This document shows, piece by piece, positions 14,632 to 60,306 of a stretch of 64,000 bases of DNA. Each line of letters opens with the position of its first letter. Position 1 is the first letter of the stretch. This DNA comes from a virus (lineage: Duplodnaviria > Caudoviricetes): positions 865-64,864 of the IMG/VR virus record IMGVR_UViG_3300030372_002914. The stretch is one strand, 5' to 3'. Both the position numbers and the translations under genes were made by a program. The notes under the pieces were generated by a model. The model made no database searches, was not told the DNA's origin, and saw only the letters and a list, made by a program, of their open reading frames with translations.

Positions 14632-14730
14632 GTTTGGTTTTAAGGTTCCTATAATAATTCTTTTAGAATTATCTTTTTTGTAGTTTATTTTATTAAACTT
14701 ATCTATTGTTAGTTTTAATCTTTTATTCAT
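14602..14730 (-). CDS. 42-aa basic micro-ORF (not in ORF track)
   Basis: MNKRLKLTIDKFNKINYKK...; start overlaps the ligase stop. Confidence 0.35.
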   Translation of the reverse strand: MNKRLKLTIDKFNKINYKKDNSKRIIIGTLKPNCDNSLKRSK

Positions 14731-15574
14731 AATTTCTTATACATTTAAATAGCGGGTGTCTGTAACTACCTGCTTTAGTTCTTTCAAAAAAAGTGAAGGT
14801 GGCACGTTGGCCCATATATTCATGGACGTTTTGTAACATTAATGCAAGATCTTTATAATTATGACCTTTTCCTGGTGGACAGCCGAACTGATTTCCATCA
14901 TCATCTTGCATTATAAACTTGCCTAACGTACCGGCTCTCTTGCCTTTACCTTCCTCATAACCAACTATGTTAGCTTCAGCATCGCTAAAATCTTTGAACT
15001 TTCTAAGACTATGTGAACGCTTTTGTTGATATGGCGTATTTAGTCTTACAATAGAACCTTCATAACCGTTATTTAAATTAGCTTTATGCATTCCTTTAGC
15101 TTCTTCCTCGTTACTAACAATCCATGCACTAACGTGTTTTACGCAATAACTTTCTGGTAAACAGAACTTTATAAAGTTGTTTCTGACATCGAAACAGTCA
15201 TTGTCAGGATGTATTATATCATAACAATGAAACTGTACCATTTCAACTGAATTAAGCATGTCTATATCATCAGGAGTTTGTCTTCTGACTATAGATATGA
15301 TTTGTTCGAAATCATTTCTTAGATCATGATTATACAGTTCGCCATCAAGTACAACTATTTGGTTATTTTTAAACCACGGTTCTAAATCGTTTAGTATATG
15401 GTCTATGTTTTTCCACACTTTACCTGTACGTGAATAAGCGGTAACTTTACCTTTATCATATTGTATAAGACAACGCACGCCGTCAAGCTTTGGTTGCATA
15501 TACACTTTATCAGTGTAATCTATTGGTTTTGCGCTTACTGGATAAGCTAACATTGGTTTATATTTCATCTTCAT
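14723..15574 (-). CDS. ATP-dependent DNA ligase
   Basis: Motif I QPKLDGVRC, III VLDGELY, IIIa FHCYDI, IV GYEGSIVR, V KFK, C-terminal YRHPLFKCIR. Confidence 0.92.
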   Translation of the reverse strand: MKMKYKPMLAYPVSAKPIDYTDKVYMQPKLDGVRCLIQYDKGKVTAYSRTGKVWKNIDHILNDLEPWFKNNQIVVLDGELYNHDLRNDFEQIISIVRRQTPDDIDMLNSVEMVQFHCYDIIHPDNDCFDVRNNFIKFCLPESYCVKHVSAWIVSNEEEAKGMHKANLNNGYEGSIVRLNTPYQQKRSHSLRKFKDFSDAEANIVGYEEGKGKRAGTLGKFIMQDDDGNQFGCPPGKGHNYKDLALMLQNVHEYMGQRATFTFFERTKAGSYRHPLFKCIRNYE

Positions 15575-27571: not shown

Positions 27572-27788
27572 AGAGCTAATTAAAGTTGCTAGAGAAGAGA
27601 TAGTTGATTCAGACGAAGATATATCAGCAGATAGATTAAAGAATGCAGCAGCTACAAAAAAGTTAGCTATATTTGATGCATTCGAAATATTAAACAGAAT
27701 CCACGAAGAAGAGAATATGTTAGAGGGTAAGGTTGAGGAAAAGAAAGAAAACAAGTTTAAAGGATTCGCAGAAGGAAGATCTAAATAA
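27516..27788 (+). CDS. Putative terminase small subunit
   Basis: Small helical protein directly upstream of and coupled to TerL. Confidence 0.5.
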   Translation: MNIKETKRNIIQAGHKAVEELIKVAREEIVDSDEDISADRLKNAAATKKLAIFDAFEILNRIHEEENMLEGKVEEKKENKFKGFAEGRSK

Positions 27789-30022
27789 TGTACGAACAAA
27801 CATTAGTTAAGGTCGTAGAGCCTATAAAATTAAACACCATTAAAAGGCTTAATAAGTCTAAAAAATGGGAGTACGGTTATAATAAAGAAGCTGATATAGT
27901 TTCTATATCTAAAACCGGGCAGATTGGCGAGGTGTTAGAGATACAGGGTTTTCAAATAGCCTTACCTAAGCAACCTAAGGAAATATACTCTTGTAGTAAA
28001 GTTAAGTCAGAACAGAAGTGGAAACAGTTTCCAGTTAATCCTGATTTTAAAAGAATTAAAACGGTATTTGATTGGCAAGATTATCCAGATGATTTTAAAG
28101 AAAAACATTATGGTTATATAGACGAAGAGTTTAGAAGAAGAGAAGAAGGTTTTTGGTTTATGAATAATGGTAAGCCAACATATATAACGGGTACACACTA
28201 TATGTACTTACAATGGAGTAAGATTGATGTTGGGGCTCCAAATTATAGAGAAGCAAATAGACTTTTCTTTATATTTTGGGAAGCTTGTAAGGCAGATAAA
28301 AGAAGTTACGGAATGTGTTATTTAAAAAATAGACGTTCTGGTTTTTCATTTATGAGTTCAGCCGAAACTGTTAATTTAGCTACATTAGCTAGTGATAGTA
28401 GATTTGGGATACTTTCTAAAACTGGTAGTGATGCAAAGAAAATGTTCACCGACAAAGTAGTACCAATTAGTTTAAATTATCCTTTCTTCTTCAAGCCAAT
28501 ACAGGACGGTATGGACCGGCCAAAGTCCGAACTCGCTTATAGAGTCCCTGCTAAAAAGTTTACTCGTAAAAAAATGAGGGAACGTGAAGAGCAAGATGAT
28601 ATGGAAGGACTTGATACAACTATTGACTGGAAAAATACTGGTGATAATAGTTATGATGGTGAGAAGCTTTCGCTATTAGTACACGATGAAAGTGGTAAAT
28701 GGGAGAGGCCTGATAATATAAAAAATAACTGGAGAGTTACAAAAACTTGTTTAAGACTAGGTAGTAGAGTAGTTGGTAAATGTATGATGGGATCTACTTC
28801 AAATGCGTTAGATAAAGGTGGTGATAATTTTAAAAACTTATATAATAATTCAGATGTTACAAAGCGAAACAGAAATGGACAGACTAAGTCAGGATTATAT
28901 TCTTTGTTTATTCCTATGGAATGGAATTACGAAGGCTTCATTGATGAATATGGACAACCTGTATTCAGCACTCCTAGAGAGCCCGCATTTGATCCACAAG
29001 GATTAGAAATAGATTATGGCGTTATAGATCATTGGGAGAATGAAGCACACGGTTTAAAAGATGATCAAGATGCTTTAAACGAATTTTACCGTCAGTTTCC
29101 TAGAACAGAAGAACACGCATTTAGAGATGAGACTGGTAACAGCTTATTCAATCTTGTTAAGATATATGAGCAAATAGATTATAACGAAGGTAATAGAAAT
29201 TCATCTGTATTAACACCTGGTAACTTTCAATGGACAAATGGAGTTAAAGATACTCAAGTTACTTTTAATCCAGATCCAAATGGACGGTTTAAAGTTAGTT
29301 GGGTACCAGGTGGAAAATTACAAAATAACGTTATATTAAAAAATGGCGTAAAATATCCAGGTAATGAACATATGGGCGCGTTTGGTTGTGACTCATATGA
29401 TATATCTGGAACGGTAGATAATAGAGGATCAAAAGGTGCTTTACATGGATTAACAAAATATTCAATGGAAGATGCTCCGGCTAATACATTCTTTTTAGAA
29501 TACATAGCAAGACCTCAAACTGCTGAAATATTTTTTGAAGATATTTTAATGGCATTAGTATTTTATGGGATGCCAATATTAGCAGAAAACAATAAACCTA
29601 GATTATTGTACTATTTACGAAGAAGAGGTTATAGAGGATTTAGCATGAATAGACCAGATAAGATTTGGAACAAACTATCTGTAGCAGAAAAAGAGGTTGG
29701 TGGAATACCCAACTCAAGTGAGGATATAAAACAAGCTCATGCCGCAGCTATTGAAATGTATATTAATGATCACGTTGGATTACTACAAGATGGTACTTAC
29801 GGTACCATGTATTTTAACGAGACATTAAACGATTGGTCAAAATTTGACATAAATAAAAGAACAAAACACGATGCTTCTATTAGTTCGGGTTTAGCAATAA
29901 TGGCTTGTAATAGACATTTATATAGACCTAATCCTAAGCAGAAAAAAGAAGCGTTAAATTTAAGTATATCAAAATATAATAATAAAGGATTTTCATCACA
30001 GATAATTAAAAATAAAATATGA
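27788..30022 (+). CDS. terL: Terminase large subunit
   Basis: Walker A variant KNRRSGFS, Walker B LVHDESGK, MGST coupling motif, RNase H-like GCDSYD, LAENN, HDASISSGLA. Confidence 0.92.
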   Translation: MYEQTLVKVVEPIKLNTIKRLNKSKKWEYGYNKEADIVSISKTGQIGEVLEIQGFQIALPKQPKEIYSCSKVKSEQKWKQFPVNPDFKRIKTVFDWQDYPDDFKEKHYGYIDEEFRRREEGFWFMNNGKPTYITGTHYMYLQWSKIDVGAPNYREANRLFFIFWEACKADKRSYGMCYLKNRRSGFSFMSSAETVNLATLASDSRFGILSKTGSDAKKMFTDKVVPISLNYPFFFKPIQDGMDRPKSELAYRVPAKKFTRKKMREREEQDDMEGLDTTIDWKNTGDNSYDGEKLSLLVHDESGKWERPDNIKNNWRVTKTCLRLGSRVVGKCMMGSTSNALDKGGDNFKNLYNNSDVTKRNRNGQTKSGLYSLFIPMEWNYEGFIDEYGQPVFSTPREPAFDPQGLEIDYGVIDHWENEAHGLKDDQDALNEFYRQFPRTEEHAFRDETGNSLFNLVKIYEQIDYNEGNRNSSVLTPGNFQWTNGVKDTQVTFNPDPNGRFKVSWVPGGKLQNNVILKNGVKYPGNEHMGAFGCDSYDISGTVDNRGSKGALHGLTKYSMEDAPANTFFLEYIARPQTAEIFFEDILMALVFYGMPILAENNKPRLLYYLRRRGYRGFSMNRPDKIWNKLSVAEKEVGGIPNSSEDIKQAHAAAIEMYINDHVGLLQDGTYGTMYFNETLNDWSKFDINKRTKHDASISSGLAIMACNRHLYRPNPKQKKEALNLSISKYNNKGFSSQIIKNKI

Positions 30023-32409
30023 GACTAGAACACTCTATAAATTTCCCATCACAAGCGGTAAGCGATTTAGAAAAACTAAGTGAAGACTACGGTTTAAAAG
30101 TAGCAAGAGCAATAAGACACGAGTGGTTTTCGGGCACTACATCTAAGTATAATAGTCATAGAAATAATTTCCACACGTTAAGACTATACGCAAGAGGAGA
30201 ACAGCCTATACAAAAATATAAAAATGAGTTATCTATAAATGGTGATTTATCTTATTTAAATTTAGATTGGAAACCTGTTCCAATTATTCCTAAGTTTGTT
30301 GATATCGTAGTAAACGGTATGGCACAAAGAAACTACGAAATAAATTGTTTCTCACAAGATGAATATGGAGTTAGTAAGCGTACAAAATATATGGAATCCA
30401 TGTTACGCGATATGCGTGCTAAGGATTTTGATAAAATGGCCTCAGAGCAACTAGGTATAGAATTAAGAGAAAATGACCCGGAAACGTTACCAGATACAGA
30501 AGAGGAATTAGCATTACACATGCAATTAAACTACAAGCAAGCTGTTGAGTTAGCTGAAGAGCAAGCTATAAATGTATTACTAGAAGATAGTGATTATGAT
30601 TTGATAAGAAGAAGAGTATTATATGATTTAACGGTTATTGGTATTGGAGCAACGAAAACTACGTTTGATTTTAGCAATGGAGCTAAAGCACAATATGTTG
30701 ATCCCACTGATTTAGTTTATTCACATACTGAATCACCTTATTTCGAAGACTTATATTATATTGGTGAAATGAAAGAAATACCAATAAATGAGTTAGTAAA
30801 AGAGTTTCCAGAATTAACAGAGTCTGATGTAAAAGATATAGTAGATAAATATTCTTATCCACTAGATTACGTAAACCATAAAGATAAAAACAAAGTTCAA
30901 GTTTTATATTTCAATTATAAAACATACATGAATAATGTTTACAAATTAAAATCAACAGCCTCCGGCGGTGATAGGATAATAGAAAAAGATGATACTTTTA
31001 ATCCGCCCTCTGATATGGAAGGAGATTTTGAGAAGTTAGAAAGAGTTGTTGAGACTTTATATGAAGGTGTTTATATAGTGGGCTCAGATAAAATACTAAG
31101 GTGGAGAATGTGCCCTAACATGATGAGGAGTGATTCTGATTTTGGTAGGGTTAAAATGAATTATCAAATTGTTGCGCCTAGAATATATGAAGGTAGGATT
31201 GAATCAATAGTTAGTAGAATAACAAGTTTTGCTGACATGATTCAGTTAACGCATTTAAAGTTACAACAAGTAATGGCGAGAATGGTACCGGATGGCGTAT
31301 ACTTAGATGCTGATGGTTTAGCTGAAATAGATTTAGGCAATGGAACAAATTACAATCCACAAGAGGCCTTAAATATGTTTTTTCAAACTGGTAGTGTTAT
31401 TGGTAGGAGTTTCACTTCTGAGGGAGATATGAATCCTGGTAAAGTACCAATACAACAAATAAGTAACGGTGTAAATAGTGGTAAATTACAAAGTTTAATT
31501 ACCACTTATAATTATTATCTACAGATGATAAGAGATGTAACCGGATTAAATGAAGCTAGAGATGCTAGTACTCCAGATAGAAACGCTTTAGTTGGTGTGC
31601 AGAAAATGGCAGCAGCTAACTCTAATACTGCAACTAGACATATATTACAATCCATGTTGTACGTTACAGCTGAAGTCGCAGAGTGTTTATCGCTTCGTAT
31701 AGCAGATATAATAGAATACTCTCCAACTAAAGATGCTTTTATTAGAGCTTTAGGTGCACATAACGTTGCCACGTTGGAAGAAATGAAAAATTTACATTTA
31801 TATGATTTTGGTATATTTATAGAGTTAATGCCAGATGAAGAGGAGAAAGCTTTATTAGAAAACAATATACAAGCTGCTTTAGCTCAGCAATTAATAGATT
31901 TAGATGACGCTATTGATTTACGTAATGTTAGAAACTTAAAGTTAGCTAATCAGTTATTAAAAGTAAAAAGAAAAGCTAAGCAAAAAAGAGATCAACAAAT
32001 TCAACAACAAAACATGCAAGCACAGGCTCAGGCTAATGCTCAAGCACAGCAAGCATCTGCTCAAGCTGAGATGCAAAAGAATCAACAAAAAATGCAAATT
32101 GAAGCACAGATAGAGCAAACTAAAAGTCAATTAAAAACACAGTATCTACAAGCTGAAGTTCAAGCTAAAAAAGAATTAATGCAATTTGAGTTTGAATTAA
32201 ACTCACAGTTAGAAGGAATGAAACAGCAAAACAACAATCAAATGGAAGGTATGAGAGAGGATAGGAGAGATCAAAGAGTTGATAGACAAGCAGGTCATCA
32301 AATGCAAATGATTGATAAAAGAAAAGAGGGTGAATCTCTTAAAAAATTCGAATCTTCTGGTAATGATATACTTACGGGAGGAGCGGGCATGGAAGATGTC
32401 CAACTTTAA
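30019..32409 (+). CDS. Portal protein
   Basis: Follows TerL; PVPIIPKFVDIVVNG, RDVTGLNEARD, long Gln-rich C-terminal coiled-coil barrel. Confidence 0.88.
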   Translation: MRLEHSINFPSQAVSDLEKLSEDYGLKVARAIRHEWFSGTTSKYNSHRNNFHTLRLYARGEQPIQKYKNELSINGDLSYLNLDWKPVPIIPKFVDIVVNGMAQRNYEINCFSQDEYGVSKRTKYMESMLRDMRAKDFDKMASEQLGIELRENDPETLPDTEEELALHMQLNYKQAVELAEEQAINVLLEDSDYDLIRRRVLYDLTVIGIGATKTTFDFSNGAKAQYVDPTDLVYSHTESPYFEDLYYIGEMKEIPINELVKEFPELTESDVKDIVDKYSYPLDYVNHKDKNKVQVLYFNYKTYMNNVYKLKSTASGGDRIIEKDDTFNPPSDMEGDFEKLERVVETLYEGVYIVGSDKILRWRMCPNMMRSDSDFGRVKMNYQIVAPRIYEGRIESIVSRITSFADMIQLTHLKLQQVMARMVPDGVYLDADGLAEIDLGNGTNYNPQEALNMFFQTGSVIGRSFTSEGDMNPGKVPIQQISNGVNSGKLQSLITTYNYYLQMIRDVTGLNEARDASTPDRNALVGVQKMAAANSNTATRHILQSMLYVTAEVAECLSLRIADIIEYSPTKDAFIRALGAHNVATLEEMKNLHLYDFGIFIELMPDEEEKALLENNIQAALAQQLIDLDDAIDLRNVRNLKLANQLLKVKRKAKQKRDQQIQQQNMQAQAQANAQAQQASAQAEMQKNQQKMQIEAQIEQTKSQLKTQYLQAEVQAKKELMQFEFELNSQLEGMKQQNNNQMEGMREDRRDQRVDRQAGHQMQMIDKRKEGESLKKFESSGNDILTGGAGMEDVQL

Positions 32410-48936: not shown

Positions 48937-51900
48937 ATGGACTTTGGAAAACACTTTGGAAAATTAGGTAAAATATTTAAATTATCTGATGGTAAATTAA
49001 TGACAATTTTGCCAGAAAATGAAAATCATTTTTTAAATCAATTAAAAGAAAAAGGTTTAAAGGCAACTTTAATGCTAGATTCAACTACTAATTTTGATGA
49101 AGTAAAAGGTTATACTAAAAAAACTACTGTATCTAAAGAAAAAGAAGAAAAAACTCAACCGGTAGATTTAACTATAAATCAAGAAGTTAAAACAGATCTA
49201 CCTCCCCCTATTAATTCATATAAATATAACAATCAAGAATACGTAAAATTAAAAACACCTAAAGAAGGTAAGGAGTATTTTGTTTTAAAAAGTGTAGCTG
49301 AAGAATTAGGTTATACTTTTGAAAACATTGATGGCGAGTACGAAAACATACCTACTATTAAAAACACAGATGACTTTATTAAAATACAAGACACTAACTA
49401 TCTTGAAGCAACTAAAGGTAATGAGCTGTTATTTGATAAATATGAAGAAGATTTTGATATTGAGCTTGAGCCTTCAAGCCAAATTGAAGATGAAATAGCA
49501 CCTGATGGGTCAGTTGAAGACTACATAATAGGTGATGGCTTTGATTTTTCAATACAAACTCCAGATAAAATTTTAACATACGAAAATGCTGCTGATTGGT
49601 TTAATTATAGATCTGAATTAGCTAATTATCCTTTTAAAGAAGAAATTATTTCGGAGCAAGGTTTTTTGGAATATACTGAATATAGTGTTTTGGATGATGA
49701 AACAGAAATTACGCCTGAAGGAGCATATTTTAAAAGTGGTTATTTATCAAAAGAAATATTTGGAACTATAAACACTTGGGATGAAAAAACTCATCTTAGA
49801 AACAAAGAAGTAAAAGAAAAAATATTTGCAGGAACTCATGGTTATAACCCTGCAACAGATACGTTATATAAATTATCTAAACCTGTAAAAGTTGATGAAG
49901 CTTCAAAATTATATGCTTTTCATAACCAAACAGAGTTTGTTGATTATGATAAATTTGTTGAGAAGGAAAACACAAAAACTATAGATTTACCACTTGTTCA
50001 AGACTACTTTTCTTCACCTAATGCAATACCAATATCATCTACCGCAAGTGTAGAATATCAAAAGAAACTTATAGATAGCATGGTATTAGATAAAAACGGC
50101 CAAGCAGCAGTTTTTGATGAGCGTTTATTTAATTTATCTTCATCTAATTTTGTAGAAACCGCTAGTGGTTTGTTAATGAAAAGTGGATTTTATATAAACC
50201 AAGGGGGTAAAGGTGTTGAAATTTATTCCCAAGATTACTATGAACATTTGTTAGAAGAAGAATTAAAACGTGTTGATAAAGAATTAGAAGATTTAGGTCC
50301 AAAGCCAACTTTTAGCAGTGCAGGTTTTTCAGTTAGAAATGCAACAACTCTTGATCAATTCGAAAAAATTTTAAATGATTATAATAAAAAATTAGAACCA
50401 TTACTTGAACAGAAAGAAAGTGCTAAGAAAAGAATGGAAGAAAAAGCTACTTTAAGTGTAAACACTTTAAATTATAATATTGAAGACGTAAGAGAGGCTG
50501 TTACAAAATTTAACAATTTTTTAAATACCGCAGGACAATATCATGACGCAGATATTGATACTTGGACTGAAAATTATATAGAGTTTGCTAAAACCAGAAT
50601 TACGAAGGAAGACAAAAAAGAAGCACATTTGAGAGTTGCGGGTGCATATGATTACATTGAATTATTACGTAAAGATTCTTTAACATACGAAATGATGATA
50701 AGCATGAGGATGTCACCTGATGAAATAATATCACTTGTGGAAAATGCTGATGAAAAAACAAAATCTCAAATTAATCGAGATATATTAGAAGTGTACGACC
50801 TTTTAACTGGCCCAGATGTAACAGTTACAGACGCGGAGCTATTAGATTTTTTAGATAGAACTAAACAAATGGAAAAAACCGAAGCAGGTTTTATACTCAA
50901 CGTGCTTAATACATCTATACTAGATCTTGAAAAAGACCACGTTAAAGAAGCTAGAAAAGAACACGCAAAGACATATTTTCCTAATTTAACTCAATCTAGT
51001 ATATTTGAAGACTACACAACGAGAGACGAAGAACTTTTGTATTTAAAATATGGTAGTAGTTATGATGAAAATAAAGCGCTAGCAATTCTTGAACTACAAT
51101 ATCCTGATGGTTTTCCTATTGATTCTACAAAATCAATAAAAATAGATGATGATCTTAGCCAACCTGATAGAGAAGCTATAATTAATACTGATAAATTTAA
51201 AAATTTAGTTAAATCGTTATATGAGACAGAGGGTTATTTAGAAGATAAAAAAAGCGAAGTAGACAAGCAAATGCGTGTAGATAAAGATCTTGAACTATTA
51301 AAATACGCATTAAACGAAGAGGCCACGAAGTTTTCAGCTAAGTTTTTTAGTGAAGGTAAATTAATTGATAATGTTAGCGATGATATAGATTTACAATTAG
51401 AAAATATTGGTGTAGAAAAAGCAAAGATAATTTATCAAATGAATGCAATAGAGGGAACTATGGGAGAACTCACGGTTAACCTTAAAGATTTGGAAGAAGA
51501 AATAAAATACTTTGATAAAAACATGGAAGTTGAAATAGAAAAGATAATGGAAAAATATAATATTGATCCAGAATCTCCAGGCGCGATGGATATGCTTAAA
51601 AAAAATCCAAAAGCTGTAGATGAGTTCAATGGGTTGGGATTGGCAAGAAACAGTCTTTTAAATCAATATAATTTATTGGCAACTGAAACAATACCTACTT
51701 ACGAGAAGTTAAAAGAAGAAATAACACAGGAATATATGACTATATTAAGTACTGAAGATGAGTATGCTTTAGCTAAGAATATAGCAGATAGAAAGCACGC
51801 TACAGGAACTTACTATGCTACAATGTTTGGTACATCTGTATTTGATATTTTTTATGGATCAGCTGCTGCTATTGCGTCTTCTGGATCTAGAACATTACAA

Positions 51901-54900
51901 ACACTAGGTGGTTTCGAGAAAGGTAGTATAGGTTATAGTTTACTACAAGACGTAGCTGAGTTTGGTGATTGGCTAGGAGATGATGTTGACAAAAAAGTTC
52001 AAAGATGGAACAATAGTTTAAGTTTGTCTACTAGATGGGAAGATGTTGATGACGCAGGATCAGCAGTAGATTATTTATTTACTGGATTTACTCAAAACGT
52101 ACCTTATGTTCTGATGATGATAGGTTCTGGTGGTATTGGTGGAGTGAGAGGTGCTACAGCGTTAATGGGTACTATTGCTTATGCTGACGATTTTGATCAA
52201 AAGTACAAAATGAACGAACTTTGGATAGAAAGTGGTGGTATGTATGGACAAGAATTTAGTTTCTTTGAAATGTTTAGTAGTGCTTTAGTATCTGGCGCGG
52301 CTGAAACGTTTTTTGAAAGAGTTTCTTTTGGTCAATTAAAAGCATTAGGTTATTTTGGTAAAACTGGACCAAGATCAATGAAGAATGCTAAAGAAGGTAT
52401 GAAAAAATCTATAAATAAAACATGTAAGTTAGATGTTTCTGAAGGTGGTAGATTAGACCTTTTAAGCAAAGCGTTAAAATATCCTAAAAATTTTGCGTCG
52501 GAAGGTTTTTCTGAGTTTATGACTGAATTTTCTAATAACTTTATGGACGTTATGATTGGTGTTGAAGGTGTTAGCATAGCAGATGGTTTAGACGAGGCAT
52601 TTATAAATGGTGCTTTTTTGTCGTCTATGTTACACGCCCCTGCAATGTTTAAAAAACCTTTTTTAGATGCATTTATATCCCCTGAAACAAATCAAAGGTT
52701 AGCTCAACAGAGTGAAAAAGTACAAAAATTAATGATACAGCTTAATGACGCATCAGTATCTACAAAACAAAAAGAAAAAATTGAAAAAGAAATAGAGCAA
52801 ATTGGTTTAGATATTAATCAAGCGTTAAGTAAAGATTTGTTTAAAGTAGATTTAATGACTAATGAGCAAAAACGTGAGTTACTTGATATACACCAAAAAG
52901 ATATAGATGCTAGAAAAAGAGTAACAGAAATAAATTCAGATAAAAGTTTAACTTCAGAGCAGAAAGCTCAAAAATTAATAGCTATAACAAATGGTATTAA
53001 TAAAAGAGCTGTTGAAAAGAATAAGTTATTAGCTACAGTAGATCCTAAAAAAGCTGAAGAACAGTATCAAAAATCTATGAATTATCATAATGATTTAGTA
53101 GCAATAAGTGTTGGTAAAATTGAAGTAGACATTATAGAAACAAATACTGACGAACAATTTGTTGAAGCTGGAATGGATAATTTAGATAAAATAGTAGAAG
53201 AAACATCTAAAAGTGAGGCAGCTTTAGAAGAAATTGAAAATGATATAAATGATTCTAAACAAAAAATAATTGATGCAAAAACAACAAAAGAAAATATAAA
53301 GATAAATTCAAAAAATAAAAACAAAGATGTTAACACTGATATAAAAGATATAGAACTTGAATCTAATAAAAAAATTGATGAAGCTAATAAAGAAATTAAT
53401 GATACTTTAAATAAAGAAAACTTATCTACAAAACAAAAAGAAAGTGCGGTAAATAGATTAAAGAATAATATTAAAGATTTAATCAATGAAAAAGTTGATA
53501 AAATAAAAGCTAAAAAACTTGAAAAGAAACAAATAAGAGAAGATAGACAAAATAATATTAAAGAACAAAATGATATTATTAATAAAGAGAAAAAGAATAA
53601 ACAAGAAGCTGAAGATGCATTAGCGATAAATGGTTCTCTTGAAACAAACGTTAGAATAGGTGGAAATATTTTAAATACTAATGCGTATGGTAAAATGGTG
53701 CCTATATACGATGGTAAAACTGGAGAAATAGTAAAATTAAAAGTAGTTATAAATAAACAAAAAGCTATAAAAGATGGAGTGTGGACTACAGTAGCACATG
53801 AATTTACACATGCTTTATTTGCTAATACTTTAAAGTCTGATTCTAAAATGCGAGAAGTATTAGGTGAATCAATGGCTGAAATGTTATCTAAAGGTAACTT
53901 AAAATTTAAAGATGGAACAGCTGAAAGTTTATTTTTTGCTAGAGTTGCGGGTTATGATGCTAATAAACAAGGCGAAGAAGCGTTAGCTATTGCGGCAGAG
54001 ATGTTGGTAAAAGGTGATTTAACTATAAAAGAAGGCATATTAAGCAAACTGGGTAACATGTTCAGAAGATGGTCTATGAACAGATACGGCTACGATTATA
54101 AATTTGATTCTACTAAAGATATAGAAAACTTTTTAAAAGACTACAGCTACTCTATTAAAAAACATAAACCTACTAAAGCTTTAGCTAATTTATTAGAAAA
54201 AGGCGCTGAGGGTAAAATGTTTAAAAACGCTAAAACACCTAAAGACAAGAGAGACTTACAAATGTATTACCAAGCCTCTAGCAATTGGATGGCTAGTAAT
54301 CCGGAGATCGTAAATAAATACGATAAGCATACTAGAAACGAGGATGGTTCTAAAAAATATAATAATAAGAAAGAGTGGAAAGAAAGGGGTGAAGTTGATA
54401 ATGTTGCTATATGGCAATATATTATGGAATCTGGTAAAAACTCTTTAGATAGTAGAATATTAGAAGAACAGGGCGATTTTGATCCTAAAGGTTTACCTAG
54501 AGAGGTACAGCAAGATTATATAAGAAAAGTAAAAGAAAATCTTCAAGATAGATGGTTAAAAAACTTTGATCCTAAGGAAAACGAAAGTGCAGCAGGTTAT
54601 TTGTTTGGAAAAAATGGTATATTATATTATGCAAAACAAGATGTTCAAAAAGATTACGTTGAAAAAGAAGGTGGTACAGATAAGCGATCTATAGATAGAC
54701 AAACATCTGATGGGCAAAGTTATGCTGACGTTATAGCTGCTGAAAAAGATAGTGCATTAGATAGAATAGATAATGCTGATTTATCAAAACAAGAAACTAA
54801 AGAACTTAAAAATACTGTTGATGATTTAATAATGGTAATAGAAATGTTAGATTTACCTAACAACACAAAAACAGTAATAAAGCAAACTATAGCAACCGCA

Positions 54901-57900
54901 TCTATACCATTAGATGGTTTAACTTATAAAAGTATTAAAAAGTTATTAATAGAAAAAGAGTTTGATCCTAACGTAAAAAATGAAAAAGGAGAACAAAAAA
55001 AATCATCAGAAGCTGTAATACCAACAGGTCCGTTATTTGAAATATTGAATGCTATATCAGCAGAATTTGGTGTTGATCCACTTAGAATATTAGCTTTACA
55101 AAATTTAGATGGAACGCAAAGAGAAGCTGCACAAAAATATATATTTACTAAATCAGTAAACGAAGACGGTTCATTTAATCCTAGAATTTTTGAAGCATTA
55201 CCAGAAGGTCAAGATCGAGATGGTAGAGCAGTTGGTATTTCTAAATCATTATTAGAAGCGTTTTACATTAAAAGCGGAAGAGTGAAAGTTGGTGAAGGAG
55301 CTAAGAAAAAGCTAGGACAAAAAGCAGCGCAAAATAAAAGAAAAAACGTAACTAAAGAACAATTTTTAGCCACGTTTGGTATAAATCCAGATGGTACGTT
55401 TCAATCAGGTACTGATGCTGACGGAGCTATTAGGGAGTTAATTATACAAATGTCTCAATTAGCTGCTAACCAAGAAATGAGACTAAACGCTATAGAAAAT
55501 AAATTAGAGTCAGCAAACATTATAGCTAAATTAAAAGATGGCACGTCGGAGGTTATGTATAATAAAGTAACTCCTAATGAAAGTCAAGCTAAACAAATAG
55601 GTCAGAAACTCAAAGAAATGTCTCAGACAGATTTATATGCGGTATACGACAGGGTAAGAGCTACAATGGATATACAAGAAGTTGGTAAAGATTCAAGAAT
55701 AAAAGATTTAGGTCAAATATTTGATGAGACTATAGCCTCAAGATATAATAAAGATATAACACAGGGCCAGCATTTAGATAACATAATTAATAGCTTTTTA
55801 GAAACAAATCCTGAATTTTATGATTTAATAATAAACAATAGCACTGGTAATATACAGCGTAGCGTTTATGGTGCTAAGCCGTTTTTTGAAAGTAGAATAA
55901 ACGAAAAACGTGGTAATCAAAAATACAAAAAAAGAAATGCTATATCTGCATCAAATAAACAGGGAGTACGAGTTCAAAATAAAGATTTCATTAAAGAATA
56001 TAATATTAAAGATGGTAAAGAAAGATTAAATATTTTATATCGTTTTGGAAAAGTTTGGGAATCACGTCTTAAAACTGGTAAAAACCCAAAACCGAATGAT
56101 GCTTGGGTTTTAGCTGCTATAATAAATGATACTGTTAATAATCAAAATGGTGGATTTTCTAGAATAAATATACCTTTTAATTTTATCATAAAAAACCCTG
56201 ACGGATCAATTGATATAAACACTCAAGTTATAGAAGAACATTCTACTCCTCAAAAACTAATTGCAACCTTAATATATGAGGGCGCTAGAACTGGTACTTT
56301 AGATAAAATTTGGCCAGTTATAGAAGCTGTAGCGTCCCAAGGTAATTTATCGCATGCTGATGATACTACTGTAGGTGTTAATTATGGCAAAACAATGCCT
56401 GATGTATTTTGGAGCGAGGTTGTACCTTTAATAGTTAGTGGTAAACTTAAATTAGATCAAGGTTTAGTATCCGTTATAAGATATGCTGTACCTCATAAAA
56501 TGAAAGATGGTACTACTGAATATATTAATTTAAATAAATATACTTGGCTTAGTAATGGTAAAACTATAACAGAAATGTTTGGTGTAAATGTAAAAGGAGA
56601 ATTAACAGATTCTATTGTTCAGTTTCAAAATGAACTTATAGTTTTACAATTAACTGGTAAAATAACTAAAGCTGAAGCTAAACAAGCTATACAAGATTTA
56701 AATGTGGATGGTTTAAGAAAGTTAGATAAAACTAAACAAACTAGTATTGTTAGAAATAAACTAGTAGCACTTAGCAATAATATTATGTATAGCAAACCCG
56801 TTGAAGTTAAAGGTATGTCTACTTTTGACTTTGATGATACTTTAGCAAGGACAAAATCAGGCGTTAGATATAGAATTAAAAATGATACAGGATTACCAGC
56901 TACTAGTAGAAAAGTTATATTCTTAGCAGGTAGTGCTGGTAGTGGCAAATCTAATGTTGTAAGGCAATTAGGTTTAGAAGGTCAAGGTTATAAAATGGTT
57001 AATCAAGATATTTCGCTAGAATGGTTAGCTAAGAACAGCGGATTGCCTACTGACATGAGAGACTTTACACCAGAGCAAATGAGTAAATGGGGTAGTTTAC
57101 AATGGGAGGCTAGAGATATAGCACAACGTAAAGCTACTAAATTTAAAGGAAGAGGTGATGGTGTTGTGGTAGACGGGACTGGCGCAAGTACTGTATCAAT
57201 GTTTACTCAGATGCAAAAATACAAAGATGCTGGATATGACGTTCAAATGTTATACGTAGAAAGTTCTTTAGAAACAGCATTAGAAAGAAATAAAGCTAGA
57301 AAAGAAAGATCATTAAAAGATTTTATTGTTGAACGTAATTGGAAGGCTGTACAAAAAAATAAAAAAGCATTTAAAGAAGAATTTGGTAATAACTTTGCAG
57401 AGGTAAATACTGACAATTTAAAACAAGGAGATCCAATGCCTACAGATCTTGTAAACAAGATAAATGACTTTTCAAATGGTTATATCAAAGGTAGATTAAC
57501 GGCTGAAGAGTTTGCTAGTCAAGGTAATACTTTATTAGAAAAAGGAGCTGAGTTTGATTTCTCAGAATTTAATAAAGTTGTAGATGGCACGCCAGGTCCG
57601 TTACTTGAAAAAGCTAGAAATAGAGCTAATAAGTTTGGAACAAAAGATATGTTTGTTTTAACAGCTAGACCAGCTCAATCAGCGTTTGCCATACAGCAAT
57701 TTTTAAAAGGACAAGGTTTAGATATACCTATAGAAAATATAACTGGTTTAGGTAATAGTACTGGAGATGCTAAAGCTCAATGGATGTTAGATAAATTTGC
57801 TGAAGGTTATAATGATATGTATTTTGTTGATGACGCTTTACAGAACGTTGAAGCGGTTCAAGCCGTATTAGGTCAACTTGATATAAAATCAAATGTTGTA

Positions 57901-60306
57901 CAGGCTAAGTTAAAAGAAAACGGTAAAATAGTTGAGCTTGGTGACAATACTATGTATAGTAAAGTTATTAAAGATGATGCTGCTGGTGAAACTAAAGATG
58001 TTAATACAGAGTTTAATGATATAATTGAGCGTAAGAAAAAAATAGGTTCTAAAAAAGTATTTTCATCTGCTGAGGCTAGAAAAAGAGGCGCTAAAATAGG
58101 TAAATTTAGATTTTATATACCACCATCTGCTGAAGATTTTAAAGGTTTAATATATTATTTCTTAGGTAAAGGCAAACAAGGTGATGCTGATATGAGGTTT
58201 TTTGAAAAAACTTTACTAAAACCTTTTGCACAAGGAATAAGATCATGGAATACGTATAAACAAAACATGGTTAATGAGTACCAAGCTTTAAAAAAACAAT
58301 TTCCTAAAGTTAAACGAACTAAAGAGGTGCCTGGTACTAGCTTTACTGTAGATACCGCTATAAGAGTATACTTATGGGATAAAGCAGGTTTTGAAATACC
58401 TGGTATATCAAAAACACTACAAAAAAAATTAGTGGCTTACGTTAATCAAAACGCTAATGTAAAAGGTTATGCAGAAGGTTTATCAACTTTAAGTCGTAGA
58501 AATGAAGGTTATGTTGAGCCTAGTAATAATTGGATGATGGAAAATATATCTTTTGACTTAAGAGATATAGTAGAGAGAGTTGGTAGGCAAGAGTTTTTAC
58601 AAGAATGGCTAGATAATAAAGATATAATATTTTCTCAAGAAAATTTAAATAAAATAGAGGCAGCTTATGGTACTGGTTTTAGAGACGCATTAGAAAATAT
58701 ACTTTTCCGTATGGAAAATGGTACTAACAGAACTTTCGGCCAAGATAAAGTAACGAACAGATTTACTGAATGGATAAACGGATCTGTCGGTGCAATTATG
58801 TTTTTTAATACTAGATCTGCGCTGCTTCAAACTATGTCTACAGTAAACTTTGTTAACTGGTCAGATAATAATCTATTTAAAGCTTCAGCAGCGTTCGCTA
58901 ATCAACCTCAGTTTTGGAAAGATTTTGCAATGATATTTAATTCACCACAGTTAAAGCAAAGAAGAAAAGGTTTACAAACAGATGTATCTGCTTCAGAATT
59001 AACTCAAACATTTGCTGATAATGGTTATAGCCCTAGAACTGTTATTAATTATCTATTACAAAAAGGTTTTTTACCTACACAAATAGCAGATAGTTTTGCT
59101 ATAGCTTTTGGTGGAGCTTCGTTTTATAGAAACAGATATAAAAAATATATAAAAGAAGGCATGTCTTCTAAACAAGCCGGTGATCAAGCTATGTTAGATA
59201 TGCAAGAAATTGCTGAAGAAACTCAACAGTCATCAAGAGAGGATTTAGTATCACAACAGCAAGCTGGACCACTTGGTCGTATAATATTAGCGTTTCAAAA
59301 TGTCACAATGCAATATGGTAGATTAACGAAGAAATCTTTATCTGATATTGTTAACAATAGAGGTGATATGAAAACTAACGTGTCTAAATTAATATATTAT
59401 GGAGCTGTACAAAATGCTATATTTTTATCACTTCAAAGTGCTTTAGCTTTTATGGTATGGGGTGACGATGAAGAAGCAATTGATGATAAAACAACTAGAG
59501 TAGCAAATGGTCTTTTAGATTCATTTTTAAGAGGTACTGGTTTATATGGTGCTGTAGTTTCTACTATTAAAAATACTGTTATACAATGGGATATACAGTC
59601 TAATAAAGGCTATGGACAACAAGATACTGGTAAAATAGCTCTTGAGCTTGTAAATTTATCTCCACCAATTGGTAGTAAAATTAGAAAAATAGTAAGCGCT
59701 TTTAAAACAGAACAATATAATAAGGGTGTTTCAGATGAACTAGGTTTAAGAGTTGAAAATCCTACAATTAAAAAATGGGCTAGTATAATTGAAGCAGCGA
59801 CTAACATACCTTTAGCTAGATTATTAAATAAAGCAAATAATATAGAAGAAGCTATTACGGGTCAACACGCTGTATTAGAGCGTATAGCAATGTTATTAGG
59901 TTGGAATGCTTGGGAATTAGGCGTTAAAGATGAAGAATTAGAAGCTGCTAAAGATGCTGCTGCAGAAAAAAGAGCTGAAGAAAAGAAAAAAGAAAAGGAA
60001 CAGAAAAAATTATTAGAAGAAAAAGAAAAAGAAGAGGAGAAAGAAAAAGAGAAGAAAGAAAAAGAAGAAAAAGGTATTAAAACAGTCAGGTGTTCTGGTA
60101 CTAGATCCAACGGTGAGAAATGTGCTATGACTACTGAAACGGCAGAAAAAACTTGGTTATGTGTTCACCATAGAGAGTTTAAAGATGGTAGTGACACAGA
60201 TGGTGATGGTATAAAAGAATATAGATGCACGGCTACTAAAGCTAATGGTGATAGATGTAAGAACAAAACTGAGAATGAGAACAAAAAATGTTATGCTCAC
60301 CAATAA
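48937..60306 (+). CDS. Giant (3789 aa) polyvalent ejection protein: zincin HExxH, HAD phosphatase with inserted P-loop kinase, helical C-terminal domain, two CCCH zinc-finger-like repeats
   Basis: HEFTH at aa ~1621; FDFDDTL (D2631), GSAGSGKS (G2665), LTARP (T2909), AKAQW, FVDD (D2965); terminal C-x8-C...C-x2-H repeats. Confidence 0.8.
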   Translation: MDFGKHFGKLGKIFKLSDGKLMTILPENENHFLNQLKEKGLKATLMLDSTTNFDEVKGYTKKTTVSKEKEEKTQPVDLTINQEVKTDLPPPINSYKYNNQEYVKLKTPKEGKEYFVLKSVAEELGYTFENIDGEYENIPTIKNTDDFIKIQDTNYLEATKGNELLFDKYEEDFDIELEPSSQIEDEIAPDGSVEDYIIGDGFDFSIQTPDKILTYENAADWFNYRSELANYPFKEEIISEQGFLEYTEYSVLDDETEITPEGAYFKSGYLSKEIFGTINTWDEKTHLRNKEVKEKIFAGTHGYNPATDTLYKLSKPVKVDEASKLYAFHNQTEFVDYDKFVEKENTKTIDLPLVQDYFSSPNAIPISSTASVEYQKKLIDSMVLDKNGQAAVFDERLFNLSSSNFVETASGLLMKSGFYINQGGKGVEIYSQDYYEHLLEEELKRVDKELEDLGPKPTFSSAGFSVRNATTLDQFEKILNDYNKKLEPLLEQKESAKKRMEEKATLSVNTLNYNIEDVREAVTKFNNFLNTAGQYHDADIDTWTENYIEFAKTRITKEDKKEAHLRVAGAYDYIELLRKDSLTYEMMISMRMSPDEIISLVENADEKTKSQINRDILEVYDLLTGPDVTVTDAELLDFLDRTKQMEKTEAGFILNVLNTSILDLEKDHVKEARKEHAKTYFPNLTQSSIFEDYTTRDEELLYLKYGSSYDENKALAILELQYPDGFPIDSTKSIKIDDDLSQPDREAIINTDKFKNLVKSLYETEGYLEDKKSEVDKQMRVDKDLELLKYALNEEATKFSAKFFSEGKLIDNVSDDIDLQLENIGVEKAKIIYQMNAIEGTMGELTVNLKDLEEEIKYFDKNMEVEIEKIMEKYNIDPESPGAMDMLKKNPKAVDEFNGLGLARNSLLNQYNLLATETIPTYEKLKEEITQEYMTILSTEDEYALAKNIADRKHATGTYYATMFGTSVFDIFYGSAAAIASSGSRTLQTLGGFEKGSIGYSLLQDVAEFGDWLGDDVDKKVQRWNNSLSLSTRWEDVDDAGSAVDYLFTGFTQNVPYVLMMIGSGGIGGVRGATALMGTIAYADDFDQKYKMNELWIESGGMYGQEFSFFEMFSSALVSGAAETFFERVSFGQLKALGYFGKTGPRSMKNAKEGMKKSINKTCKLDVSEGGRLDLLSKALKYPKNFASEGFSEFMTEFSNNFMDVMIGVEGVSIADGLDEAFINGAFLSSMLHAPAMFKKPFLDAFISPETNQRLAQQSEKVQKLMIQLNDASVSTKQKEKIEKEIEQIGLDINQALSKDLFKVDLMTNEQKRELLDIHQKDIDARKRVTEINSDKSLTSEQKAQKLIAITNGINKRAVEKNKLLATVDPKKAEEQYQKSMNYHNDLVAISVGKIEVDIIETNTDEQFVEAGMDNLDKIVEETSKSEAALEEIENDINDSKQKIIDAKTTKENIKINSKNKNKDVNTDIKDIELESNKKIDEANKEINDTLNKENLSTKQKESAVNRLKNNIKDLINEKVDKIKAKKLEKKQIREDRQNNIKEQNDIINKEKKNKQEAEDALAINGSLETNVRIGGNILNTNAYGKMVPIYDGKTGEIVKLKVVINKQKAIKDGVWTTVAHEFTHALFANTLKSDSKMREVLGESMAEMLSKGNLKFKDGTAESLFFARVAGYDANKQGEEALAIAAEMLVKGDLTIKEGILSKLGNMFRRWSMNRYGYDYKFDSTKDIENFLKDYSYSIKKHKPTKALANLLEKGAEGKMFKNAKTPKDKRDLQMYYQASSNWMASNPEIVNKYDKHTRNEDGSKKYNNKKEWKERGEVDNVAIWQYIMESGKNSLDSRILEEQGDFDPKGLPREVQQDYIRKVKENLQDRWLKNFDPKENESAAGYLFGKNGILYYAKQDVQKDYVEKEGGTDKRSIDRQTSDGQSYADVIAAEKDSALDRIDNADLSKQETKELKNTVDDLIMVIEMLDLPNNTKTVIKQTIATASIPLDGLTYKSIKKLLIEKEFDPNVKNEKGEQKKSSEAVIPTGPLFEILNAISAEFGVDPLRILALQNLDGTQREAAQKYIFTKSVNEDGSFNPRIFEALPEGQDRDGRAVGISKSLLEAFYIKSGRVKVGEGAKKKLGQKAAQNKRKNVTKEQFLATFGINPDGTFQSGTDADGAIRELIIQMSQLAANQEMRLNAIENKLESANIIAKLKDGTSEVMYNKVTPNESQAKQIGQKLKEMSQTDLYAVYDRVRATMDIQEVGKDSRIKDLGQIFDETIASRYNKDITQGQHLDNIINSFLETNPEFYDLIINNSTGNIQRSVYGAKPFFESRINEKRGNQKYKKRNAISASNKQGVRVQNKDFIKEYNIKDGKERLNILYRFGKVWESRLKTGKNPKPNDAWVLAAIINDTVNNQNGGFSRINIPFNFIIKNPDGSIDINTQVIEEHSTPQKLIATLIYEGARTGTLDKIWPVIEAVASQGNLSHADDTTVGVNYGKTMPDVFWSEVVPLIVSGKLKLDQGLVSVIRYAVPHKMKDGTTEYINLNKYTWLSNGKTITEMFGVNVKGELTDSIVQFQNELIVLQLTGKITKAEAKQAIQDLNVDGLRKLDKTKQTSIVRNKLVALSNNIMYSKPVEVKGMSTFDFDDTLARTKSGVRYRIKNDTGLPATSRKVIFLAGSAGSGKSNVVRQLGLEGQGYKMVNQDISLEWLAKNSGLPTDMRDFTPEQMSKWGSLQWEARDIAQRKATKFKGRGDGVVVDGTGASTVSMFTQMQKYKDAGYDVQMLYVESSLETALERNKARKERSLKDFIVERNWKAVQKNKKAFKEEFGNNFAEVNTDNLKQGDPMPTDLVNKINDFSNGYIKGRLTAEEFASQGNTLLEKGAEFDFSEFNKVVDGTPGPLLEKARNRANKFGTKDMFVLTARPAQSAFAIQQFLKGQGLDIPIENITGLGNSTGDAKAQWMLDKFAEGYNDMYFVDDALQNVEAVQAVLGQLDIKSNVVQAKLKENGKIVELGDNTMYSKVIKDDAAGETKDVNTEFNDIIERKKKIGSKKVFSSAEARKRGAKIGKFRFYIPPSAEDFKGLIYYFLGKGKQGDADMRFFEKTLLKPFAQGIRSWNTYKQNMVNEYQALKKQFPKVKRTKEVPGTSFTVDTAIRVYLWDKAGFEIPGISKTLQKKLVAYVNQNANVKGYAEGLSTLSRRNEGYVEPSNNWMMENISFDLRDIVERVGRQEFLQEWLDNKDIIFSQENLNKIEAAYGTGFRDALENILFRMENGTNRTFGQDKVTNRFTEWINGSVGAIMFFNTRSALLQTMSTVNFVNWSDNNLFKASAAFANQPQFWKDFAMIFNSPQLKQRRKGLQTDVSASELTQTFADNGYSPRTVINYLLQKGFLPTQIADSFAIAFGGASFYRNRYKKYIKEGMSSKQAGDQAMLDMQEIAEETQQSSREDLVSQQQAGPLGRIILAFQNVTMQYGRLTKKSLSDIVNNRGDMKTNVSKLIYYGAVQNAIFLSLQSALAFMVWGDDEEAIDDKTTRVANGLLDSFLRGTGLYGAVVSTIKNTVIQWDIQSNKGYGQQDTGKIALELVNLSPPIGSKIRKIVSAFKTEQYNKGVSDELGLRVENPTIKKWASIIEAATNIPLARLLNKANNIEEAITGQHAVLERIAMLLGWNAWELGVKDEELEAAKDAAAEKRAEEKKKEKEQKKLLEEKEKEEEKEKEKKEKEEKGIKTVRCSGTRSNGEKCAMTTETAEKTWLCVHHREFKDGSDTDGDGIKEYRCTATKANGDRCKNKTENENKKCYAHQ

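Follow-up and report, generated by a model that had tools for sequence, protein, structure and literature searches.

A P-loop kinase nested in a HAD phosphatase within a giant late protein of an uncultured phage

The stretch of phage DNA considered here (the window: 64,000 nucleotides, positions 865 to 64,864 of IMG/VR record IMGVR_UViG_3300030372_002914) encodes a giant protein of 3,789 amino acids (aa) in which a P-loop kinase interrupts a phosphatase-like domain of the HAD superfamily: the chain leaves the HAD fold at a hairpin, forms the kinase and then resumes the HAD fold. On balance, and with confidence only slightly better than even, the module is read as a Pnkp-type end-healing unit of nested topology that is probably carried by a virion protein. 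This reading is preferred because both halves are nearest to domains of polynucleotide kinase-phosphatases (Pnkp or PNKP), because the kinase always accompanies this HAD domain, in whatever order, and because the two tandem orders found among relatives mimic those of T4 Pnkp and mammalian PNKP.

Nesting of the kinase and arrangements in relatives

The motifs quoted in a preliminary description of this DNA are all in frame in the giant open reading frame (ORF), where that description had placed them. The N-terminal side of the HAD fold carries FDFDDT (aa 2630, nucleotide 56824); the kinase follows with IFLAGSAGSGKS (aa 2661), VVVDGTG (aa 2743) and ALERNKARKER (aa 2781), and the HAD motifs are then taken up again with FDFSEF (aa 2873), LTARP (aa 2908), AKAQW (aa 2945) and FVDD (aa 2963). 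The whole module spans aa ~2623-2992. The nested topology that had been proposed, unlike the serial domains of T4, is borne out both by structure prediction and by comparison with homologues that lack the insertion. An AlphaFold2 (AF2) model of aa 2618-3005, built on an alignment of 58 sequences, folds both domains (mean predicted local distance difference test score, pLDDT, 84.8; predicted template modelling score, pTM, 0.69) with confident junctions, and its elements run in the order strand 1, hairpin strand, kinase, hairpin strand, helix and HAD core.

In homologues without the kinase, the HAD domain is a contiguous unit of 168 aa. Setting one of these, L065 (DFDDTLARTKSDVLYTTPEG-KKGKLNAEQFAEKGAELLEQGYKFDFSEFNKV), against the window (DFDDTLARTKSGVRYRIKND-[198 aa]-YIKGRLTAEEFASQGNTLLEKGAEFDFSEFNKV) shows that the turn of the hairpin has given way to the kinase. 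Motifs I and II are 79 aa apart in most kinase-less proteins and 278 aa apart in most nested ones (276-284 aa in the remainder). Relative to its homologues, the kinase is a true insertion at the tip of the flap, the hairpin that comes after motif I. In the HAD superfamily, C1 caps are inserted at the hairpin after motif I. The earlier suggestion that the kinase takes the cap position thus stands as regards the site of insertion but not as a replacement, since a small native helical cap element (aa ~2856-2880) is retained, as it is in the kinase-less forms.

A scan of IMG/VR gave 265 stretches that encode a relative. Within homologous giant proteins the two modules occur in four arrangements: the HAD domain alone (L065-L080), the kinase directly before it (L062), the kinase directly after it (L063, L064) and the kinase inside it (the window and L001-L061). 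A set of 264 relatives from two protein libraries, a sample biased towards the nested query, was classed by domain-level phmmer; 178 were nested, 64 had the HAD domain only, four had the kinase before and two after it, and the rest were truncated. In complete relatives the kinase always lies inside or directly beside this HAD domain and nowhere else in proteins of 2,000-4,000 aa. A search with a profile of the kinase-less HAD brought up no fewer than 1,296 additional proteins, 299-2,000 residues long, and a Pfam kinase call was present in almost none of the 120 listed. In public metagenomes, at least 2,232 proteins of 2,083-6,631 residues match the module at E <= 0.001. One relative, P0216 (3,627 aa), carries an unrelated insert of ~85 aa between motif I and the second hairpin strand (SQWEFRADGNLYKVSRG), which suggests that the flap hairpin is an insertion hot spot or "slot".

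In a tree of the HAD domain (C-terminal part, 140 columns, quick IQ-TREE search) the architectures are strongly clustered. The kinase-less L065, L066, L070, L071 and L079 fall inside the main nested clade (92% in the Shimodaira-Hasegawa-like approximate likelihood ratio test, SH-aLRT); the tandem forms group with the other kinase-less group, which is adjoined by L048 and L050, nested forms with slightly longer spacing. This topology would accommodate insertion and excision alike, and a single origin of the nested state is also compatible with it.

The two halves and their structural relatives

Conservation was assessed across 58 homologues of the nested type, whose identity to the window protein is 57-93%. 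Residues D2631, D2633, T2635, K2671, D2691, D2746, R2784, N2785, R2788, R2791, T2909, R2911, K2946 and D2966 are invariant in all 58, and the four HAD motifs are also kept throughout 19 kinase-less homologues. Such a pattern clearly points to purifying selection on both domains.

Pfam places nothing above its cut-off on the HAD half (PF12710 reaches only E 0.01-0.09). DUF2608, a family assigned to the HAD clan, gives weak matches to 17 of the 19 members, the best at E 8.2e-6, and a profile of the kinase-less HAD gave no significant match in the PDB, with ResA at E 0.06 and mammalian PNKP (1yj5, 3zvl) at E ~0.4. The structural models are more informative. In VIA-align, against a database of 48,161 representative chains, the split HAD of the nested model is closest to 5uj0_B, the phosphatase of T4 Pnkp, with Z 13.2 over 126 of 142 residues and a root-mean-square deviation (rmsd) of 2.3 Å; this alignment runs over model residues 6..375 and bridges the kinase insert, and other HADs score Z 10.2-10.9. 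The kinase-less HAD of L065 was modelled as well (AF2, pLDDT 83.5); three Pnkp phosphatases head its matches (5uj0_B, Z 13.4; 4xrp_A, 12.8; 1ltq_A, 12.5), the next HAD follows at 10.6, and more than 40 of the 50 matches listed are HAD-fold structures (Z 8.4-13.4). The identity of the HAD half is accepted because its motifs are invariant, because the two flanks of the kinase jointly match the T4 phosphatase in the AF2 model, and because homologues carry the domain contiguous. As modelled, this half appears complete despite the insertion and nearest to Pnkp-type phosphatases, by a margin of 2-3 Z units that is moderate, not overwhelming.

The DFDD of motif I could also be taken for the active site (DFDxD) of a crAss-like virion RNA polymerase, with flanks that are not HAD. 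A preprint reports that some phages of Bacteroidota have giant virion proteins with a DFDxD motif of this polymerase kind (bioRxiv 10.1101/2020.03.07.982082). The chance that this holds for the window protein is negligible: its motif is DxDxT, no D[FYWLIV]DxD occurs anywhere in the giant protein, and the flanks fold as a HAD, aligning over 124-126 residues with the T4 Pnkp phosphatase (rmsd 2.3-2.5 Å for the split and kinase-less models), with motifs II-IV invariant.

For the kinase half, the earlier description as a complete kinase of zeta-toxin/AAA_33 type agrees with Pfam, where both models exceed their cut-offs on aa 2657-2806: AAA_33 with 46.4 bits (cut-off 27, E 6.5e-12) and Zeta_toxin (PF06414) with 35.7 bits (cut-off 22.3, E 7.6e-9). 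The nested kinase is the sole AAA_33 match of the complete genome. Its PHROGs matches are the unnamed phrog_12810 (2.9e-20), an "ATPase" family and phrog_505, "polynucleotide kinase" (2.3e-8), and a 438-aa segment searched against PDB sequences returned nothing at E <= 1. By structure, Foldseek ranks the kinase of Clostridium thermocellum Pnkp (CthPnkp; 4gp7, E 7.6e-8, TM-score 0.74 on the target), Pnkp1 (4xrp) and T4 Pnkp (1ltq) at the top of the PDB matches. The best VIA-align match is again the CthPnkp kinase (4gp6_A, Z 17.2, rmsd 3.0 Å, 166 of 171 residues), followed by PSTK (Z 16.2), the uncharacterised kinase 2rhm (16.1), zeta toxin (14.7) and the polynucleotide kinase (PNK) of T4 (14.3-14.4). 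The PNKP-like composition that had been proposed is upheld, in that the best structural matches of both halves are polynucleotide kinase-phosphatases.

An alternative for the kinase, real though distinctly the less probable, is a small-molecule kinase akin to zeta toxin or AvrRxo1 that acts on UDP-N-acetylglucosamine (UDP-GlcNAc), NAD or an immune signalling nucleotide, lodged in a permissive slot of a HAD whose substrate is unrelated. The Zeta_toxin match above cut-off would fit this, as would the Z scores of 13.2-14.7 for Zeta/PezT and AvrRxo1, the automatic naming of UniProt homologues as "UDP-N-acetylglucosamine kinase", the hairpin that is empty in 64 relatives and holds something else in P0216, and the lack of an Arg at the position of T4 R38. 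Zeta-like kinases are, moreover, known from phage polyvalent proteins, where a weakening of the cell wall has been proposed (Iyer et al., 2017, PMC5512222). Yet PNK-type structures score above zeta toxin, AAA_33 scores above Zeta_toxin, and the domain is compact (~198 aa) as in PNKs and appears to lack the extra C-terminal part of zeta toxins. The zeta-type structures 1gvn_B (Z 14.7) and 2p5t_B (Z 13.4) align over 172-173 of their 244-272 residues. The Asp of VVVDGTG and the RNxxR lid also seem nearer to PNK/AAA_33 than to zeta toxins, and the kinase stays beside the Pnkp-like HAD in either order.

No nested module was found among the isolates of a phage collection of 50,697 records, where the matches were to the kinase only, at 25-33% identity. 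The closest isolate kinases (in phages HTVC008M, Melnitz and Atu_ph07) stand alone or are otherwise fused, and have as neighbour DUF6267, an NT5C-type HAD or a protein resembling cytidylyltransferases. In Pelagibacter phage HTVC008M, whose kinase is the closest isolate homologue, the DUF6267 protein AGE60461 (L090:709-1941) is encoded two genes upstream and has a KWDG motif resembling nucleotidyl-transferase motif I, and a cytidylyltransferase-like gene directly follows the kinase; in phage Melnitz it is the NT5C-type HAD that comes after the kinase homologue. Such neighbourhoods may hint at nucleotide or nucleic-acid metabolism, a suggestive but not decisive indication.

Table 1. Features of the window (coordinates in nucleotides of the window; residues numbered in the giant protein).
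Feature	Position	Strand	Remarks
HAD N-terminal piece: strand 1 with motif I, first flap-hairpin strand	56803..56886	+	AF2 strands E9-14, E25-31
HAD motif I, D2631-F-D2633-D-T2635	56827-56841	+	both D and the T unchanged in all 58 nested homologues
Inserted P-loop kinase, aa ~2651-2848 (~198 aa)	56887..57480	+	Pfam, structure, gap in kinase-less homologues
Walker A/P-loop, G2665-SAGSG-K2671-S2672	56929..56952	+	K invariant; S2672 at 56950-56952
D2691 (VNQD), candidate general base	57007..57009	+	hhalign onto T4 Pnkp D35; invariant in 58/58
D2746 of VVVDGTG, Walker-B-like	57172..57174	+	T4 D85 counterpart by motif order; invariant
Lid, R2784-N-KA-R2788-KE-R2791 (RNxxR)	57286..57309	+	T4 R122/R126 counterpart by motif order; R, N, R, R invariant
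HAD C-terminal piece: second hairpin strand, small helical cap element, Rossmann-like core	57481..57912	+	AF2 elements E232-238 to E367-372
HAD motif II, T2909-A-R2911	57661..57669	+	T4 S211-G-R213 counterpart by motif order; invariant
HAD motif III Lys, K2946	57772..57774	+	invariant
HAD motif IV, D2965-D2966	57829..57834	+	D2965 in 57/58, D2966 in 58/58
Giant ORF, 3,789 aa, host of the module	48937..60306	+	closes the late/structural operon as its last large gene; terminase, portal and virion structural genes lie upstream
HEFTH (aa 1621-1625)	53797-53811		sole HExxH motif of the giant protein; mid-protein; no Pfam peptidase family matched
Two C-terminal Cys/His repeats (aa 3719-3788)	60091-60300		C-x9-C-x12-C-x2-H (second: C-x10-C)
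Terminase	27788-30022	+	late operon
Portal	30019-32409	+	late operon
ATP-dependent DNA ligase, 283 aa, compact	14723-15574	-	DNA_ligase_A_M and OB_2; only ligase detected in the genome

The giant protein, its genome and possible partners

The source genome is a record of 64,864 bp with direct terminal repeats and a GC content of ~32%, rated 100% complete, and the window covers nearly all of it. The phage appears to be an uncultured marine relative of podoviruses of Flavobacteriia, because its portal is 41-50% identical to that of Flavobacterium Elemovirus and of an uncultured Caudoviricetes record, and is also matched by Cellulophaga, Tenacibaculum and Maribacter phages. The plus-strand late operon contains, in addition to the terminase, portal and giant genes of Table 1, several PHROG matches to "virion structural protein" and a protein of 2,343 aa.

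The giant ORF is syntenic with terminal "structural protein" genes, gp20 of Elemovirus (3,694 aa) and gp101 of Cellulophaga phage phi38:1 (1,691 aa), both without the kinase-HAD module. Since BLASTP and phmmer detected no similarity of the giant protein to either of them, the label "structural protein" is transferred by position alone. Of the earlier view that this is an ejection protein injected with the DNA, the position that closes the structural operon speaks for it and the missing sequence similarity to the syntenic genes does not; delivery with the DNA is suggested by the place of the gene. Outside the module, the other seven pieces of the protein matched no Pfam or PHROGs family and no signature domain of polyvalent proteins, aa 1-2600 and the C-terminal 751 aa had no tblastn match in the 50,697 phage records, and no transmembrane helix was predicted (Kyte-Doolittle, 19-residue window, threshold 1.4). 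One late-operon ORF holds the kinase, the HAD, a HExxH motif (aa 1621) and Cys/His repeats. Elemovirus gp20 has HEIFH (aa 1543) at a relative position comparable to that of HEFTH here. The C-terminal repeats (CSGTRSNGEKCAMTTETAEKTWLCVHH and CTATKANGDRCKNKTENENKKCYAH) are preceded by a stretch of low complexity, rich in Lys and Glu, and may be modules that bind zinc.

The fit with tRNA content that had been put forward turned out to be weak, with one tRNA gene in the window (Arg-TCT, ARAGORN), no RtcB and only a DNA ligase. The portal relative phi38:1 encodes an RtcB "tRNA splicing ligase" (gp030, L087:19247-20650) and 16 tRNA genes; RNA damage and repair is, judging from gene content, a theme of the phage group, yet this is no evidence for the window enzyme.

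A module that heals nicks or ends of the phage's own incoming or replicating DNA for the phage DNA ligase, as mammalian PNKP does, is a further alternative, and a rather improbable one. It would suit a complete genome with direct terminal repeats in which an ATP-dependent DNA ligase, and no RNA ligase, was detected, and mammalian PNKP is among the kinase matches (3zvl, Z 12.5) as well as among the weak HAD profile matches. It assumes, however, 3'-phosphate or 5'-OH groups at genome ends or nicks, and DNA binding likewise, and the frequency of kinase-free relatives (64 of 264) suggests that such processing is not essential in the phage group.

Interpretation and significance

Several observations weigh against a Pnkp-type end-healing unit and temper the confidence placed in it. 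In sequence, the resemblance to T4 Pnkp is at the level of motifs: hhalign sets K, S and D of the kinase onto T4 K15, S16 and D35 (probability 80%, 35 columns), and of the HAD profile only motif I, DFDDT, onto D165-V-D167-G-T (probability 1.7%, 13 columns). In structure, PSTK and the uncharacterised kinase lie ~1 Z below the best PNK, with zeta toxin at 14.7. The residue after the P-loop Lys is Ser in 29 of the 58 nested homologues, as in the window, Gly in 27 and Thr in two, so that nearly half of them read GSGKG at the S/T site while the remaining kinase residues are constant. Adenylate kinases carry GKG-T. The GSGKG homologues may still be active, although the change would be unusual for PNK-type kinases. 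Three residues after D2691, where T4 has Arg38, all 58 homologues have Leu; T4 R38, known from mutagenesis as essential, binds the phosphate of the acceptor nucleotide, which in CthPnkp is held by R41, and the invariant K2699 or another basic residue might substitute for it. As to partners, no RtcB was found in the complete 64.9-kb genome, its only match to PF09414 (RNA_ligase) is the ATP-dependent DNA ligase, and a search with PF09511 (the T4 Rnl1 family) returned nothing anywhere, the control included. The virion part of the reading is weakened by the lack of similarity to gp20 and gp101. Finally, because the HAD is often found alone (64 of 264 relatives, and almost all of the 120 listed in the HAD profile search) and because the insert of P0216 occupies the exact hairpin that holds the window kinase, the kinase might be an independent cargo domain and not the partner of the phosphatase.

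Compared with known systems, T4 Pnkp (PseT; 1ltq, 1ly1, 5uj0) has the same composition, a P-loop domain of 5'-kinase type and a DxDxT HAD phosphatase. No structure matches the HAD half better than the T4 phosphatase (Z 13.2-13.4), and the T4 kinase scores Z 14.3. Counterparts are present here of K15, S16, D35, D85, R122 and R126 of the T4 kinase and of D165, D167, S211, R213, K258, D277 and D278 of its phosphatase, assigned by hhalign for the first motifs of the kinase and the first of the phosphatase and by motif order for the rest. T4 Pnkp, however, is a soluble, early protein of 301 aa with an N-terminal kinase and a C-terminal phosphatase in series, whereas here the kinase lies inside the phosphatase, and the unit forms aa ~2620-2990 of a late protein of 3,789 aa, at an identity of ~14-17%, with no counterpart of R38 and no Rnl1 or Rnl2 partner detected. 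The kinase of CthPnkp (4gp6, 4gp7, 4mde) is the closest structure to the window kinase, and Pnkp1 of Capnocytophaga gingivalis (4xrp) resembles both halves, with Z 13.5 over both domains. These bacterial enzymes are linear and come from RNA-repair operons that also include Hen1 and a ligase, a setting that is missing here, and the phosphatase of CthPnkp is a metallophosphoesterase, that of the window a HAD. Mammalian PNKP (3zvl, 1yj5) joins a HAD 3'-phosphatase and a P-loop 5'-kinase in one chain, in the order seen in L063 and L064; it differs in its FHA domain, its role in DNA repair and its linear layout. The UDP-GlcNAc kinases zeta toxin and PezT match in Pfam above cut-off and in structure below the PNK type (Z 13.4-14.7), and unlike them the window kinase is shorter and has no antitoxin-like partner in view. 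The concept of polyvalent proteins, in which enzymatic domains are strung along giant phage proteins thought to enter with the DNA, would in general outline fit the window protein. In the text of the study that describes zeta-like kinases in such proteins, "phosphatase" does not occur and "HAD" appears only as the word "had", so that a HAD phosphatase is apparently not described there (Iyer et al., 2017, PMC5512222). In the literature searched, no description of a nested kinase/HAD or of a virion-packaged Pnkp was found, and the search for virion proteomics of Elemovirus and Cellulophaga phages yielded nothing useful.

Kinase-phosphatase end-healing enzymes are a classic phage answer to anticodon nucleases, and those known to us are small soluble proteins with both domains in series. 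For the window protein, the substrate may be RNA ends, DNA ends, a UDP-sugar or a nucleotide. Were it a Pnkp-type unit, the Mg-dependent HAD phosphatase would remove a 3'-phosphate or 2',3'-cyclic phosphate from RNA or DNA ends, the kinase would phosphorylate the 5'-OH of RNA or DNA ends left by host nucleases, and the healed ends would then be fit for sealing by host ligases or by the ATP-dependent DNA ligase of the phage. Should the giant protein be an internal, ejected ("polyvalent") virion protein, the enzyme would be there at entry. A bolder proposal, tentative and more easily wrong than right, is that the flap hairpin of a Pnkp-type phosphatase in giant virion proteins of abundant marine podoviruses of flavobacteria serves as an evolutionary slot for enzymes, and that the ejected, pre-assembled nested kinase-phosphatase heals RNA or DNA ends cut by host defence nucleases before phage genes are expressed. 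If true, no packaged enzyme for end healing would precede it, and Pnkp would gain a new topology.

The four arrangements within one family of phage proteins amount to a natural experiment in how domains are inserted and permuted, and the flap hairpin of the HAD fold is shown to be a permissive insertion site. The module family is abundant in public metagenomes, and its detectable counterpart in the phage collection consists of the kinase-only matches. Packaging and ejection of the giant protein, if they occur, would let the enzyme act ahead of transcription of the phage genome, and the idea of "polyvalent" injected proteins would extend to nucleic-acid repair.

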